Shown: piece after piece, positions 29,842 to 35,015 of the stretch
Layout: each line of letters begins with the position of its first letter
How positions within the stretch are numbered: the first letter of the stretch is position 1
Source of the DNA: Vicinamibacteria bacterium
GTDB taxonomy: Bacteria; Acidobacteriota; Vicinamibacteria; Marinacidobacterales; Marinacidobacteraceae
Direction of reading: 5' to 3'
Length of the DNA: 64,000 nt
Assembly (NCBI GenBank): GCA_963555995.3
Contig: OY821641.1
Span: 1,408,001-1,472,000, forward strand
Program-made: the position numbers and the translations under genes
Notes under the pieces: generated by a model
What the model saw: the letters and a program-made list of their open reading frames with translations, nothing else
What the model was told of the DNA's origin: nothing
The model's database searches: none

Positions 29842-30954
29842 GTGGACCCCGGAGGCGGGGGGACGCCTCTCCGCGGACGGGGAGCGGTTTCCAACCCCGC
29901 GGGCCGGTTCGAGGCGCTGCGCGAGGAGGCGTTCGACGACGGCTGGGATGCGCGCGATCCACCGCCCGAGCGCGTTCCCACCGAGGTCATCAACGACCGG
30001 ACGAAGACGATCATCGCCCGGAACGACTCCCCGGACATCCCCTTCGACCGCTCGATCAATCCCTACCGGGGCTGCGAGCACGGCTGCATCTACTGCTTCG
30101 CCCGGCCGAGCCACGCCTACCTGGGCTTCTCGCCGGGCCTCGACTTCGAGACGAAGATCGTGGCCAAGCCGGAGGCGGCGAACCTGCTGCGCCGCGAACT
30201 CCGGAAGCCCGGCTACCGGGTCGGCCCGCTGGCGCTCGGCTCGAACACCGATCCCTACCAGCCGGTCGAACGGGAGCTCCGCATCACCCGGCAGATCCTC
30301 GAGGTGCTGGGCGAGGCGCGCCACCCCACCGGCATCGTCACCAAGTCGGCCCTGATCCTCCGGGACCTCGACCTCATCGTCCCGATGGCCGAGGAGGGCC
30401 TCGCCCAGGTCATGGTCTCGGTGACGACGCTGCGGCGGGACCTGGCCCGCACCATGGAGCCCCGGGCGGCGGCGCCCGAGCGGCGGCTCGCCACCATCCG
30501 GACGCTCCGGGAGGCCGGGGTGCCGGTGGGCGTGCTGGCCTCGCCCATGATCCCGGCGCTCAACGACTCGGAACTGGAGGCGATCCTGGAGGCGGCGGCG
30601 GAGGCGGGCGCCGGGTCCGCCGGGTTCATCCTGATCCGGCTGCCGCACGAGCTGAAGGAACTCTTCTCCGAGTGGCTGGAGACCCACGTTCCGACCCGCG
30701 CCGCGCACGTCGAGAGCCTGATCCGGGATACGCGCGGCGGCCAGCTCTACGAGGCGAAGTTCGGAGACCGGATGCGGGGGCAGGGACCCTACGCGGAGTT
30801 GCTTGCCAACCGTTTCCGGGTGGCGGCGCGGCGTTACGGCCTCGACCGGAAGCATCCCCTGTTCCGCCTGGACCTCTTCCGGCCGCCGCGGGCGCCCGGC
30901 GCGCCACGGTCGTTGTTTGACAAAGTAGCCCCTCCACAGGAGGAGTCGCCATGA
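29842..30954 (+). CDS. PA0069/Rv2578c family radical SAM protein
   Basis: RGRGAVSNPAGRFE, INPYRGCEHGCIYCFARP, NTDPYQP. Confidence 0.93.
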   Translation: MDPGGGGTPLRGRGAVSNPAGRFEALREEAFDDGWDARDPPPERVPTEVINDRTKTIIARNDSPDIPFDRSINPYRGCEHGCIYCFARPSHAYLGFSPGLDFETKIVAKPEAANLLRRELRKPGYRVGPLALGSNTDPYQPVERELRITRQILEVLGEARHPTGIVTKSALILRDLDLIVPMAEEGLAQVMVSVTTLRRDLARTMEPRAAAPERRLATIRTLREAGVPVGVLASPMIPALNDSELEAILEAAAEAGAGSAGFILIRLPHELKELFSEWLETHVPTRAAHVESLIRDTRGGQLYEAKFGDRMRGQGPYAELLANRFRVAARRYGLDRKHPLFRLDLFRPPRAPGAPRSLFDKVAPPQEESP

Positions 30955-32165
30955 GCAACGCTTCGCGCCCGGTTTCCGCCGTGCTCGTCCCGGCCGCCAT
31001 CGTGCTTTCAAGTTGGGCCGCCGCCGCTACCGCCCAGGATGGCTCGCGCGCCCGCGATCTTGGCGTGCCCTTCGACGGCACTCCCGGACCGCTCAACGCG
31101 ATCACCGACATCGCCGGGATCGAGGTGGGTCACCACACGATCATCCGCGGGGAAGGGGAACTGGTGGTCGGCGAGGGACCGGTACGCACCGGAGTCACCG
31201 CGGTGCTGCCACGCGGGCGCGCCAGCCGGGGGCGCGTCTTCGCCGCCTGGTTCACCCTGAACGGCAACGGCGAGATGACCGGGACCACCTGGCTCCGCGA
31301 CCGGGGGATCCTCGAAGGGGCGGTGATGATCACGAACACCCACAGCGTGGGCGCCGTGCACGAGGCCACCATCGCCTGGGCGCAGGCGAACCTCGACGCG
31401 CCCGACTGGAGCCTGCCGGTGGTCGCCGAGACCTGGGACGGGTTCCTCAACGACATCAACGGCTTTCACGTGCGGCAGGAGCACGTCTTCGCGGCGCTGG
31501 ATTCGGCCCGGGGCGGACCGGTCGCCGAAGGATCGGTGGGAGGTGGCACCGGGATGCGGACCTTCGGCTTCAAGGCCGGGATCGGCACCTCCTCCCGGAT
31601 CGTGGAGGCCGGGGGCAACGAGTACGTGATCGGCGTGCTGGTGCAGTCCAACTTCGGGAGCCGGAACCTGATGACGGTCGCCGGGGTCCCGGTAGGGCGG
31701 GAAATCCCGGACCTGACGCCCGAACGGGGTCCCTTCGACGCCTCGCCGGGCGAGGATGAAGACGACGGCTACGGGCGGGACGGCTCGATCATCATCGTCG
31801 CGGCCACCGATGCGCCGCTCCTCCCCCACCAGCTCAACCGCTTCATCCGCCGCACCACGCTGGCGCTCGGCCGGGTCGGCAGCATCGCCTCGAACGGCTC
31901 GGGCGACATCTTCATCGCCTTCTCCACCGCGAACGAGGAGGCCGCCCACAACGAGAGCGGGGTCGCCCCGCTCGAGAACCTCGCCAACAACAACATCAAT
32001 CCCCTCTTCGAGGGGGTGGTGCAGGCGACCGAGGAGGCCATCGTCAACGCCGTGGTGGCGGGCCGGGACATGGTCGGGGTCAACGGCCGCCGGATCTACG
32101 GGCTGCCGCACGACCGGCTCCGCGACATCCTCCGGCGATACAACCGGCTGAGCGAACCGGAGTAG
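30951..32165 (+). CDS. dmpA: P1/S58 family aminopeptidase (DmpA-like)
   Basis: GPLNAITD, VRTGVTAV, NGNGEMTG, EGSVGGGTGM, DG/SII cleavage site, GSGDIFIAFST. Confidence 0.9.
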   Translation: MSNASRPVSAVLVPAAIVLSSWAAAATAQDGSRARDLGVPFDGTPGPLNAITDIAGIEVGHHTIIRGEGELVVGEGPVRTGVTAVLPRGRASRGRVFAAWFTLNGNGEMTGTTWLRDRGILEGAVMITNTHSVGAVHEATIAWAQANLDAPDWSLPVVAETWDGFLNDINGFHVRQEHVFAALDSARGGPVAEGSVGGGTGMRTFGFKAGIGTSSRIVEAGGNEYVIGVLVQSNFGSRNLMTVAGVPVGREIPDLTPERGPFDASPGEDEDDGYGRDGSIIIVAATDAPLLPHQLNRFIRRTTLALGRVGSIASNGSGDIFIAFSTANEEAAHNESGVAPLENLANNNINPLFEGVVQATEEAIVNAVVAGRDMVGVNGRRIYGLPHDRLRDILRRYNRLSEPE

Positions 32166-32190
32166 TCGCCGCCGGGGCTCGGCGGGCGGC

Positions 32191-33780
32191 TCAGCGCCGG
32201 TGCGGTGGGGTCCCGTAGGGGTAGAACTCGCTCAGGTCCACGTTCTCGTAGGGCAGCGCGTCGAGGAAGGTGGTCCCCACGAACGGTTCGGGCGCCTCCA
32301 CGATCTGGATGGTGCGCGCGTAGCCGGTCTCGTCGAAGCCGCGCCGGAAGTGGACGCGGGACTTGACCACGAACACCTCGTAGTCCTCGGGGTTGATCGG
32401 CCCGATGCGGAACGCCTCCGGGTAGAGCACCTGTTCGTAGGCGGGAACGAGGAAGACGACGTTGCCGTCGCCGAAGGAGACGACCGCGATCCGGTCGTAG
32501 CCGAAGCCCTCGTCGAAGTACTCGAGGGTCCCGGTGATCCGCCGGGGCGAGCCGCCGGAGGGGGTGAAGCCGCCGATTTCCTGGTCGAAGGGGTCGCCCG
32601 GCTGGGCGTCGGTGGCTGCGAGGGTCTCGAGGGTGGCCGGTGAAGAGATCGTGCCGTAGAGCGTATTGCCGATGCCCGCCGCCAGGAAGGCGTTCAGGAT
32701 GTGCGTCGCGTCGCCGGGACGGTCGCTGTGGTCGCCCACCGCCACCGGCGTCTCCCCGGCGGCGATGGCCGCCGCCACGATCCGCGCGGCCTCCGCGGGT
32801 CGGGGATAGGTGCCGAGGGCGAAGTCCTCGCGGACCCGCCAGATGAAGTCGTCCATGTCGTCGGCGATCCGGTCCGCGAGTTCCTGGTCGCCGTTCGTCA
32901 TGACGTGGACGGTCGCGCCCACGTCGGGCACGTCCGACCAGGGATAGCCGTAGAAGACGCTCACCCAGGCGTCGTGCTCGCGCGCCTCCCAGCGCCGCGC
33001 CCGCTCCATGATGTCCATCGCGGGGGACTGGCCGGTCCACTGCAGCACGGTGGCGGTGATGACCCCCGGTTTGCGGGTCGCGGTGGTGGGCTCGTACTCG
33101 CCCCGCGCGGTGATCCGCAGCGCGCGGGCGGCGCGTTCACCCTGGATGTAGGAGTCGTAGTGGGGGAAGCGCTTGGTCACGAAGGCGAAGTCGGCATGCT
33201 CGAGGAACTCCCCGTCCTCGTTCCCGTGCAGGTCGAAGGTGCCGGCGATGGGCACGTCGGGACCGACGATCTCACGGAACCGGCGGGCGATCTCGGCTTC
33301 GGGACGCGGGACGTCCCGCACCGCCATCGCCCCGTGGAGCGCGAGATAGACCCCGTCCACCGGCAGTTGTTCCTCGAGCTCGGCGAGCATCGCGTCCAGG
33401 AAGTGGTCGAAGGTCTCCCTGGTATTCCAGCTTCGTGAGGAGCCCCCGAACACTCCCACCGGCGAACTCAGCGGTACGAGCTCCACGTCGCCGAACTCGC
33501 GGGCGCGCTTGACGAAGCCGCCGACGTAGCCGCCCGACCCGAGCAGCGCCTCGCCGGAAACGGGCTCGCTGACCTGAAGCCAGTCGTCAATTTCGGTGTC
33601 GCCGCCGGGACAGAAGGTGCAGGTCTCGTGCGCGAAGCGCGCCACCGCGATGCGGAGGTTGGGTTCGGCGGGAGGGGCGCCGCACGCGCAGAGCGCCGCG
33701 GTCGCGGCGGCGGCCAGCAGCGCCAGCCGCAGGAGTCGCCGGTCGGCGGCGGGGTGATCTGAAAACCGGTTTCGCATCAT
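32191..33780 (-). CDS. M81 family metallopeptidase (MlrC-like), probable lipoprotein
   Basis: HETCTF, LALHGAM, FDLHGN, FPHYD, VKSRVHFR. Confidence 0.9.
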   Translation of the reverse strand: MMRNRFSDHPAADRRLLRLALLAAAATAALCACGAPPAEPNLRIAVARFAHETCTFCPGGDTEIDDWLQVSEPVSGEALLGSGGYVGGFVKRAREFGDVELVPLSSPVGVFGGSSRSWNTRETFDHFLDAMLAELEEQLPVDGVYLALHGAMAVRDVPRPEAEIARRFREIVGPDVPIAGTFDLHGNEDGEFLEHADFAFVTKRFPHYDSYIQGERAARALRITARGEYEPTTATRKPGVITATVLQWTGQSPAMDIMERARRWEAREHDAWVSVFYGYPWSDVPDVGATVHVMTNGDQELADRIADDMDDFIWRVREDFALGTYPRPAEAARIVAAAIAAGETPVAVGDHSDRPGDATHILNAFLAAGIGNTLYGTISSPATLETLAATDAQPGDPFDQEIGGFTPSGGSPRRITGTLEYFDEGFGYDRIAVVSFGDGNVVFLVPAYEQVLYPEAFRIGPINPEDYEVFVVKSRVHFRRGFDETGYARTIQIVEAPEPFVGTTFLDALPYENVDLSEFYPYGTPPHRR

Positions 33781-34055
33781 TTCCTGTCCTCGTGAGTGGG
33801 TGGTTGGGGGATGGCGCGCGTCCGGGCGGCAGCGCCACGATGGTCACGCCGATCAGGATCCGGTAGCCGACGTTACCCGCGGCGAGAGGATACGCGCATT
33901 GGCCCTCCTCGCATGACGATGGCCCGGCGGGATGCCGGCCATGACGCGGCGGCGGATTCGGAGTCCAGCGACTTGCCGGGTGGTGCACGCGATCGGAGCC
34001 GGCCGTGGTGGCTCGTTGGCGGGGGCGTGGGGTGCGGTCCCGCGCCGGGTTCGGA

Positions 34056-34084
34056 TTGCGCGGCGCAGCCGCCACTCCTATACT
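34056..34084 (+). promoter_or_regulatory. Sigma70-like promoter upstream of the structured RNA and NYN gene
   Basis: TTGCGC-17 nt-TATACT. Confidence 0.55.
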
Positions 34085-34088
34085 CCGA

Positions 34089-34220
34089 TCGCGAAAGACG
34101 AACACGACGCCTGGTTAGCGTCACCCATCCAAAGAAGGGCCTTGTTGCCCTCACGCGGCCAGGCGTCAACCTTGCGAACAGAAACGGGACGCGGAGGGAG
34201 ATCCTCCGGACCGCGTTCCC
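34089..34220 (+). ncRNA. Candidate structured RNA upstream of the NYN gene
   Basis: GACGCCTGG (34106) pairs with CCAGGCGTC (34159-34167), enclosing hairpin AGGGC-CTTGTT-GCCCT; second hairpin at 34186-34220. Confidence 0.45.
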
Positions 34221-34334
34221 CGGCTTGGGCTCGCTGGCCGAGAGACCGGAATGGCTGGCGGTCCGGCGTCGGCGTCCGCCTGGCTGCGATCGGCTGGCGC
34301 ATTCCGCCCGGCCCGGGTGGAGGAGGAGGCACTC

Positions 34335-35015
34335 GTGCGGAGGGCGGCGCTGCTCATGGACGGCGGGTACGTCATCAAGAAGTTGGAGGGGCCCCGCCAT
34401 CGGTTCCCGTCTGCGACAACCATTCGGCGGCTGGCTGCGGAACTGGTTTCCGAGGCCGGTCTGCTGAACCTCTATCGGGTTTTCTTCTACCACGCCGATC
34501 CTTACCGCGGCTCGCTGCGGAGGCCGATGTTGGGGGAGCGAATCCACTTTGAAAGCACCAGGACGGCTCGAGACCACCGTCGGCTGCTCCAGGAGTTGGA
34601 AGGATCACGGGATTTCGCCGTGCGCCGCGGTGAAGTGGTGTTCCGGGGCTGGCGCATCCGCCGGGCGGTGCAGCGCCAGCTCCAGGCCGAGCCCGAGAGG
34701 CCGATTGCGGCCGGCGACTTCGTCCCCGACCTGGTGCAAAAGGGCGTAGACATGCGGATCGGCCTCGATATTGCCGCGCTGGCGCTCAAGCGGCTGGTGG
34801 ATACCGTCGTTGTGGTGAGCGGCGATGCCGACATGGTTCCCGCGATGCGTTTCGCACGCCGGCAAGGATTGCGGGTGGGACTCTGCACCCTCGGCGTCCG
34901 GGGAGCCAACCGCGAACTCCGCGCCCATGCGGACTTCATGCTGGACTGGACACCGGAAACGGCGCCCGCCGCTACGGCCGCCGCCGTTCCCGTTTCGCCA
35001 GCATCAGGTCACTGA
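34335..35015 (+). CDS. NYN domain (LabA/DUF88, PIN-like) ribonuclease
   Basis: RBS AGGAGGAGG; LLMDGGY, YRVFFYHADP, QKGVDMRIGLDIA, VSGDADMVPA. Confidence 0.92.
   Translation: MRRAALLMDGGYVIKKLEGPRHRFPSATTIRRLAAELVSEAGLLNLYRVFFYHADPYRGSLRRPMLGERIHFESTRTARDHRRLLQELEGSRDFAVRRGEVVFRGWRIRRAVQRQLQAEPERPIAAGDFVPDLVQKGVDMRIGLDIAALALKRLVDTVVVVSGDADMVPAMRFARRQGLRVGLCTLGVRGANRELRAHADFMLDWTPETAPAATAAAVPVSPASGH

Follow-up and report, generated by a model that had tools for sequence, protein, structure and literature searches.

A conserved hairpin RNA precedes a widespread family of NYN nucleases: a candidate RNA-antitoxin module with a PIN-like toxin fold

In the genome of a Vicinamibacteria bacterium, one promoter-like site is followed by a structured RNA and by the gene of a predicted NYN ribonuclease, and the arrangement raises the question of whether the RNA is a separate partner of the nuclease or only the leader of its mRNA. 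The original prediction, made from the letters of a 64,000-nt stretch of contig OY821641.1 (hereafter the window), proposed a cognate antitoxin or cofactor. As judged from sequence alone, both the arrangement and the conservation of a short RNA between one promoter and a nuclease gene are present. We therefore asked what the protein, the fold, the distribution and the natural rearrangements of this cassette say about the relation between its two parts.

The protein matched the Pfam family NYN (PF01936) at 43.3 bits, with a gathering score of 24.2 (E = 6.7e-11). Its AlphaFold2 model (pLDDT 93) most closely resembled the NYN domain of MARF1 (5yaa; Z 17.2, rmsd 2.5, 144 aligned) and VPA0982 (2qip; Z 17.0, rmsd 3.1, 153 aligned), with the next-best structure at Z 11.1; Foldseek agreed with this fold assignment, and a sequence search of solved structures gave no real match. 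Translation likely starts at GTG 34335, 5 nt after GGAGGAGG and in agreement with the starts of homologues; an ATG at 34251, giving 254 aa, was rejected because homologues begin at the equivalent of 34335. The acidic catalytic motifs had been described as intact, and D9, D139, D164 and D166 are indeed present here and kept in 192, 191, 191 and 189, respectively, of 192 non-redundant homologues with a full N terminus and enough upstream sequence. Across this set, basic and aromatic residues outside the acidic site are also invariant, including R48, R97, K136 and R175. In the AlphaFold2 model, ~50 residues inserted after the first strands and ahead of the catalytic half have no counterpart in 5yaa or 2qip, and this family-specific segment may bind the RNA. 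The protein family comprises 462 clusters at 50% identity (E ≤ 1e-30), or 1502 at 1e-10. PADLOC gave only weak partial matches, and PADLOC and NCBIfam matches were all weak and of NYN type.

The NYN gene lies between an M81 peptidase gene and a 4Fe-4S protein gene. ORF and Pfam calls confirmed that it opposes both of these minus-strand genes, in keeping with the original claim that it has no adjacent protein antitoxin. Its 3′ end (34972-35015) shares 44 nt with the convergent 4Fe-4S protein gene, and a terminator scan of the window found none between the two. Among 108 neighboring ORFs from 45 loci (108 of 155 called, long ones cut to 270 aa), no partner protein recurred. Neighbors vary by locus and most are ordinary; the few others are integrases, a type I restriction subunit, an IS4 transposase and a Panacea antitoxin. 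In several family genomes, the cassette sits beside an S58 or M81 peptidase gene (window 30951-33780; L004, L009, L011, L027, L002), which suggests an old insertion site; other copies of the cassette have moved.

The promoter, predicted to drive both the RNA and the NYN gene, was found where it had been proposed (Table 1). It is a rare form of site: the 3.8-Mb contig C1 holds just 16 TTG-nnn-17-TATAAT sites with at most one mismatch, this one among them. A consensus promoter scanner returned 0 sites, this promoter falling short of its threshold. In each of the 11 family loci examined, a TAnnnT box lies 17 to 26 nt 5′ of the stem, and a promoter-like site precedes the RNA in 19 of 61 loci chosen by sequence anchors, compared with 5 in shuffles. 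Among the changes listed for a variant contig from run X4, five fall in the promoter spacer and none in either hexamer.

Table 1. Features of the NYN locus (window positions) and loci representing the other RNA motif types
Feature	Position	Strand	Basis or remark
Predicted sigma-70-type promoter (TTGCGC 34056-61, TATACT 34079-84, 17-nt spacer)	34056..34084	+	sequence
Outer helix, 34089-34094 with 34172-34177	34089..34177	+	pair probability 0.56-0.70
Conserved RNA motif, class A1, 62 nt	34106..34167	+	fold z, covariation, single copy
Stem P1, 34106-34121 with 34153-34167	within 34106..34167	+	
Internal loop 34122-34135 opposite C34152 (13x1 internal loop)	34122..34135	+	conserved, unpaired
Cap hairpin P2	34136-34151	+	
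Lineage-specific spacer, 166-167 nt, with second hairpin 34186-34220	34168..34334	+	
Natural deletion allele, 622 nt skipped	34269..34890	+	joint 34268-34891
Ribosome-binding site GGAGGAGG, 5 nt 5′ of GTG	34322..34329	+	sequence
NYN (LabA/DUF88-type, PIN-like fold) predicted ribonuclease, 226 aa	34335..35015	+	Pfam, model
Type A2 loci	L177, L222		
Type B loci	L227, L054, L063, L064 and 23 more		
Type C loci	L229, L012, L097		
Type D loci	L059, L076, L190		

Both arms of the predicted stem and the inner hairpin lie where they had been placed. The core (34104-34170) has a folding energy of −31.8 kcal/mol (z −4.9), and none of 300 dinucleotide shuffles was equally stable; the complete 256-nt leader folds unremarkably (z −1.07). 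A structured, conserved RNA was borne out at a smaller size, as the conserved part spans ~62 to 75 nt rather than a whole leader of 90 to 130 nt. The class A1 stem has 12 to 16 bp and ends in an invariant CG/CG core, and the cap hairpin is free in sequence and length across the class. The internal loop measures 12 to 14 nt in 52 of 52 sequences, with the consensus GAUYYAAG opposite one C and most positions held, its AAG end having served as a selection anchor. We regard this loop as a predicted protein-binding or inhibitory element. The pair 34134/34152 is G-C in 42 and A-U in five of 49 aligned sequences, and G34134 may accordingly pair with C34152. Two outlying elements of the original prediction fared less well: the outer helix is plausible in this strain and is not seen in relatives in the family alignment, and the second hairpin is present, lacks conservation and lies outside the conserved motif. 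The spacer that holds this hairpin has no full-length homologue in 27 family genomes, just matches of 21 to 43 nt; relatives have an RNA-to-gene spacer of 24 to 60 nt, and the segment 34180-34334 folds like its shuffles (z 0.0).

The complement of the loop occurs in the cognate coding sequence in two of 52 cases, with 1.6 expected, and antisense pairing with NYN mRNA was rejected on this count. The pairs of highest mutual information form the nested helices and no loop-flank pairing stands out, so that a pseudoknot has no signal in an analysis in which the invariant loop bases cannot show covariation. No tandem repeat was found in 33780-34400.

A search of 61 related genomes placed close NYN homologues, 51 to 73% identical in the parts that matched, in the same family; upstream they share a −10 box and, after it, the same hairpin. 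We also drew NYN loci from genome (at least 80), metagenome (at least 80) and viral (80) collections. The motif adjoins NYN genes in about eight phyla and in prophages, a count that rests on 19 named loci and on pattern assignments that can err; the groups, going by record titles, are Acidobacteriota, Pseudomonadota, Gemmatimonadota, Verrucomicrobiota, Lentisphaerota, Myxococcota, Planctomycetota, Bacteroidota and Eisenbacteria. In an alignment of 49 sequences, 85% of stem cells are paired, compared with 62% in shuffles and 39 to 49% with slid partners; changes on both sides number 248 against 94, and RNAalifold recovers the same helices. In 26 sequences outside the training set, 86% of cells are paired in an alignment fitted to the model. 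Because these two sets had been chosen or aligned with pairing in view, we repeated the test on 61 loci picked by sequence anchors alone, with misfits kept. Here, 413 of 549 cells pair on register, compared with 230 to 280 off register. When 30 disjoint pairs of nearest neighbors on the NYN protein tree are compared, 29 of 50 double changes preserve pairing on register, and 2 to 7 of 25 to 39 do so off register. The covarying structure anticipated upstream of NYN homologues was thus found both on and off the training set. Rfam gave no match at gathering score in the window and none to E 10 in 33700-34400, and 0 of 20 homologous NYN loci tested match any family at the leader.

Copy number and strand bear on a reading in which the hairpin acts as DNA, as a repeat end or a single-stranded recognition site through which the cassette is moved. 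Its appeal is that the cassette is patchy (one of 401 genomes in one class sample), has unrelated neighbors and can invert. Covariance model R1, however, has one match in the window's genome, and a genome-wide repeat or REP element unlinked to NYN was rejected on this ground; there is one copy per locus and genome and no transposase partner, and the promoter stands at a fixed distance upstream in both orientations. In the anchor-chosen loci, stem cells hold 74 G-U and 15 A-C combinations, an excess that fixes the folded strand, although by itself it cannot separate RNA from single-stranded DNA. Taken together, we consider an element acting at the DNA level very improbable. Two tandem copies of the motif stand upstream of NYN at L130 (1733-1865) and at L050, the only two-copy loci among types A1 and B, and recall repeated antitoxin units.

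The tie between RNA and gene is tight when approached from either side. At E ≤ 0.001, 83 of 83 R1 matches lie within 250 nt upstream of a NYN match (198 NYN loci, 1.08 Mb, training copies included). A search from the RNA side gave at least seven new matches in two samples of 150 genomes (33 candidates scored per genome): three precede an intact NYN gene, one a NYN start at a contig end and one a NYN gene cut after ~36 codons, and two lie in genomes without a NYN match. Weaker model matches (E > 1e-4) at eight places had no NYN gene nearby, fell mostly in reading frames and were taken as chance, as were the 95 stretches from an RNA-first pattern scan of viral contigs (80 examined, 0 scored by the model).

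The class A1 hairpin is one of several such RNAs. Four further uncatalogued types precede other clades of the same NYN subfamily, type A2 sharing the architecture of A1 with a different core, and clear tails of a hairpin plus T residues come after several of these motifs. One of the five types is present at 171 of 192 non-redundant NYN loci (A1 67, A2 40, B 27, C 23 and D 14, inverted copies included), a loose A2 pattern also matching 14 of 164 control windows. Most of the 21 loci left unclassified by pattern show a hairpin by eye; L153 among them looks chimeric. Intact-looking NYN genes at L107 and L099 have no recognizable RNA nearby, which counts against strict dependence. On the protein tree the motif type changes 14 times, compared with a mean of ~91 and a minimum of 84 in 100 shuffles; because the patterns were drawn up by eye with the lists in tree order, and because kin have the same labels, this low number overstates co-evolution. 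The distribution shows clade-specific RNAs, not proven co-evolution, as far as sequence patterns tell.

Such diversity would also suit a ribonucleoprotein enzyme akin to the unexplained pairs of DUF3800, drum and skipping-rope motifs or to an early step toward RNA-guided nucleases; here the nuclease would require the RNA as a cofactor, sensor or scaffold for its activation or targeting. Several unrelated RNA folds for one protein family, in either orientation, are what the DUF3800 RNAs display in the available text of PMC5737381, and the invariant basic and aromatic residues outside the acidic site point the same way. The RNA nevertheless has no variable single-stranded segment of a guide-like kind, its variable part being a closed hairpin, and the lack of enrichment of the loop complement in the cognate coding sequence also speaks against a guide.

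The survey of classified loci favors, at first sight, a purely cis-acting role, in which a nontoxic NYN protein binds or cuts the hairpin of its own mRNA and thereby keeps down its own production, whether through attenuation, decay or a block to translation, and in which the RNA has no separate life. Nucleases commonly autoregulate through leaders, and this general precedent adds to the appeal of the idea. Of 171 classified loci, 167 have the motif in the sense direction between the promoter and the start codon, usually 20 to 70 nt 5′ of the NYN start, and an RNA type that tracks the protein would be equally expected. The remaining four loci, which fall in three motif types, carry the RNA facing away from an intact NYN gene, in three lineages and with its own promoter in two. 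At L124/L127 and L138, the strand opposite NYN carries the RNA, together with a TTGACA-17/18-nt-TACATT/TACTTT site of its own located between the RNA and the NYN start codon. The NYN proteins of these loci are intact sisters (support 99) of 72% identity, with pN 0.17 and pS 0.93, and the nearest relatives of these proteins have the forward layout; the pairing of the RNA was kept through this 28% protein divergence. Separate inversions were seen at L064 (type B), with a promoter and a terminator-like hairpin, and at L190 (type D), where no clear promoter was seen. A search of 401 genomes gave no further inverted copy, only a forward copy in G062. A purely cis-acting leader should not survive inversion beside intact genes, whereas a separate protein-binding transcript can. 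Expression of NYN at the inverted loci is inferred from purifying selection, and the RNA need not, by this comparison, be part of the NYN mRNA. With three independent inversions beside intact genes, one of them persisting as described, we judge autoregulation in cis an unlikely account of the family.

Natural losses of the gene provide a second line of evidence. All 13 close NYN copies in 28 family genomes are accompanied by the RNA (at the 12 copies outside the window, 11 by model match and L005 by pattern); ten of the genes are intact and three are frameshifted, which could reflect assembly errors. Five more RNA copies precede deleted or truncated NYN genes with different breakpoints, and three of these remnants retain the first ~20 codons. 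In the window's own organism, a natural deletion allele loses the ribosome site and most of NYN and keeps the promoter and the RNA. Its joint is present in four of four public runs that hold the stretch (one study), with 10 letters that fit both sides, and contig breaks and depth steps occur at both ends of the skipped segment. With moderate confidence, the deletion allele segregates in this organism's own populations, the short side of the joint amounting to 20 letters. Loss of the gene with retention of the RNA is what a toxin and its antidote would leave, and a deletion that spares the promoter end could also be neutral. The RNA occurs without a NYN match in four genomes (G001, G014, G744 and G652), which fits remnants and equally a role without NYN. 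At two of them (L404, G744:C8; L408, G652:C79), promoter and RNA are intact and are followed by unrelated reading frames, as remnants or through reuse as a leader. At L082:140-623 and L066:1161-1657, the RNA abuts, by coordinates, the middle of the NYN match, suggesting more cases in which the N-terminal part was deleted and the RNA spared. That the protein alone is lost suits a burden better than a useful complex, and we hold an RNA-dependent NYN enzyme of the kind described above to be rather unlikely.

Inverted copies and one-sided gene loss together lend support to a free RNA that would restrain the nuclease. We favor, with a probability of roughly 0.6, a module resembling AbiF and type III systems, in which the RNA would be the antitoxin and the PIN-fold protein the toxin. 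The promoter would make an abundant RNA of ~65 to 90 nt and less read-through mRNA, and the nuclease would bind the conserved internal loop, probably via its ~50-residue insert, and be held inactive. No intrinsic terminator was found for the window copy, the sole scanner match being on the minus strand and at chance level (1, compared with 1.4), and a T-rich tail is absent from this copy and from 10 of 10 family copies. Across class A1, a hairpin followed by a T-tract occurs in 32 of 65 copies and, on the reverse strand, in 48 of 65, so that a class-wide terminator test is not discriminating. The 3′ end of the RNA may here be formed by processing through NYN or a host RNase, and NYN may itself trim the RNA out of the leader where a terminator is absent. 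If the RNA supply stopped, for example when a phage shuts off host transcription, or if the cassette were lost, NYN would become free, cut cellular RNA and arrest growth; the outcome would be abortive infection or maintenance of the element.

NYN homologues occur in 47 plasmid and 65 phage records, and in lambdoid prophages they take accessory positions beside xis/int or directly after cI, the latter presumably the position of rexAB in lambda. Copies in Klebsiella and E. coli prophages bear the class A motif, and an E. coli isolate from a river has a cassette with the same motif in a lambdoid prophage. One prophage homologue of the NYN protein is WP_179292477.1. In phage ev099 (NC_049953.1; L395:2373-3358), a distant NYN homologue, preceded by a hairpin and a promoter-like site of its own, stands directly after cI and before N, and similar NYN matches are listed in 48 records of Stx2a-converting phages. 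A further homologue is found on conjugative Campylobacter plasmids (28 records; L394:1333-2178, NZ_CP076508.1), where the leader is AT-rich and the class A model does not match. On one viral contig (L228:908-970), a Pistol ribozyme match (35.7 bits, gathering 34.5) lies 2 kb from the NYN gene. On chromosomes the defense context is modest, few neighbors being defense or mobile genes.

A wider reading, to which we give slightly better than even odds, is that of a widespread, undescribed family of RNA-controlled PIN/NYN nucleases. It would be the first RNA-antitoxin system with a PIN-fold toxin, made up of hundreds of protein clusters, each with a clade-specific RNA that can switch strands and still work; it would serve as prophage-borne defense, and it would represent a second, HEPN-independent case in which a small RNA has domesticated a nuclease. 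Few toxin folds (ToxN-type, AbiF HEPN and AvcD) are known to have a protein-binding RNA as antitoxin, and the textbook partner of a PIN-fold toxin is a protein antitoxin. If true, the present reading would add a new toxin fold to the RNA-antitoxin class and give a function to part of the large uncharacterized LabA/DUF88 group, plus several new RNA families. AbiF-RNA pairs are reportedly forerunners of Cas13, which makes other nuclease-RNA pairs of direct interest for evolution and for tools.

A literature search found no description of a NYN-RNA pair, subscription journals lying largely outside its reach. NYN and LabA are absent from the main text of two 2026 bioRxiv surveys of intergenic elements, as far as that text was available, and "NYN" in PMC12704755 denotes a codon and is unrelated. 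The accessible part of PMC8040213 lists, without sequences, a few candidate RNAs no more than 5 kb from NYN/LabA domains, and overlap with the present motifs is possible. The conserved RNA-NYN pairing is thus real and apparently undescribed, and the supplements of RNA-motif surveys could hold the motif.

How, then, does the cassette relate to known systems? As a LabA/DUF88 NYN protein (PF01936, NYN.COG1432; 2qip, 5yaa), it has the fold and acidic site of its relatives, from which it differs by the ~50-residue insert and a dedicated RNA; in section 22 of the 2017 PIN classification (PMC5499597), as far as available, the function of NYN.COG1432 is given as unknown and no RNA partner is mentioned. 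It shares with VapBC the PIN-superfamily RNase fold but has no adjacent co-oriented protein antitoxin in the window and none that recurs among the 108 neighbors. In Weinberg et al. 2017 (PMC5737381, available text), the DUF3800-I to -XI, drum and skipping-rope motifs combine one protein family with several unrelated RNAs in either orientation, a diversity matched here by five motif types and four inverted loci in three of them. Protein and RNA are nevertheless different, with no neighboring DUF3800 gene and no Rfam DUF3800 motif, and at NYN loci, unlike those of DUF3800 RNAs, the RNA lies upstream in nearly all cases.

The closest likenesses are to type III and AbiF systems. As in ToxIN, CptIN and TenpIN, whose promoter, RNA and nuclease form one unit (PMC13682666, available text), the cassette is a unit of these three parts without a protein antitoxin. 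It differs in that the protein has no ToxN, CptN or TenpN homology, only NYN in Pfam and the NYN fold, and in that a single hairpin stands where those systems have tandem repeats, of pseudoknotted units in their case, with a terminator that is not general. For AbiF, the available text of two reports describes action of RCd22 from C. difficile in cis and in trans through RNA-protein contact (bioRxiv 10.1101/2025.04.15.648962) and inhibition of AbiF by a single-stranded bulge of AbiFr (PMC12737573). The NYN cassette resembles the pairs in these reports (AbiF/AbiD-F) in its stand-alone RNase gene, which follows a shared promoter and a short folded RNA whose single-stranded bulge is conserved, in its carriage by prophages and in the occasional presence of two motif copies. 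Its nuclease, unlike AbiF (Abi_2, HEPN), has a NYN/PIN fold, with NYN only in Pfam; its RNA, unlike abiF RNA, gives no RF03085 match in the window or at 20 homologous leaders, and the window copy has no terminator. Since toxin homology, Rfam motif and tandem repeats are all lacking, membership of either group does not follow, and our best reading is that the NYN-RNA module works like AbiF or type III systems while standing apart from both.
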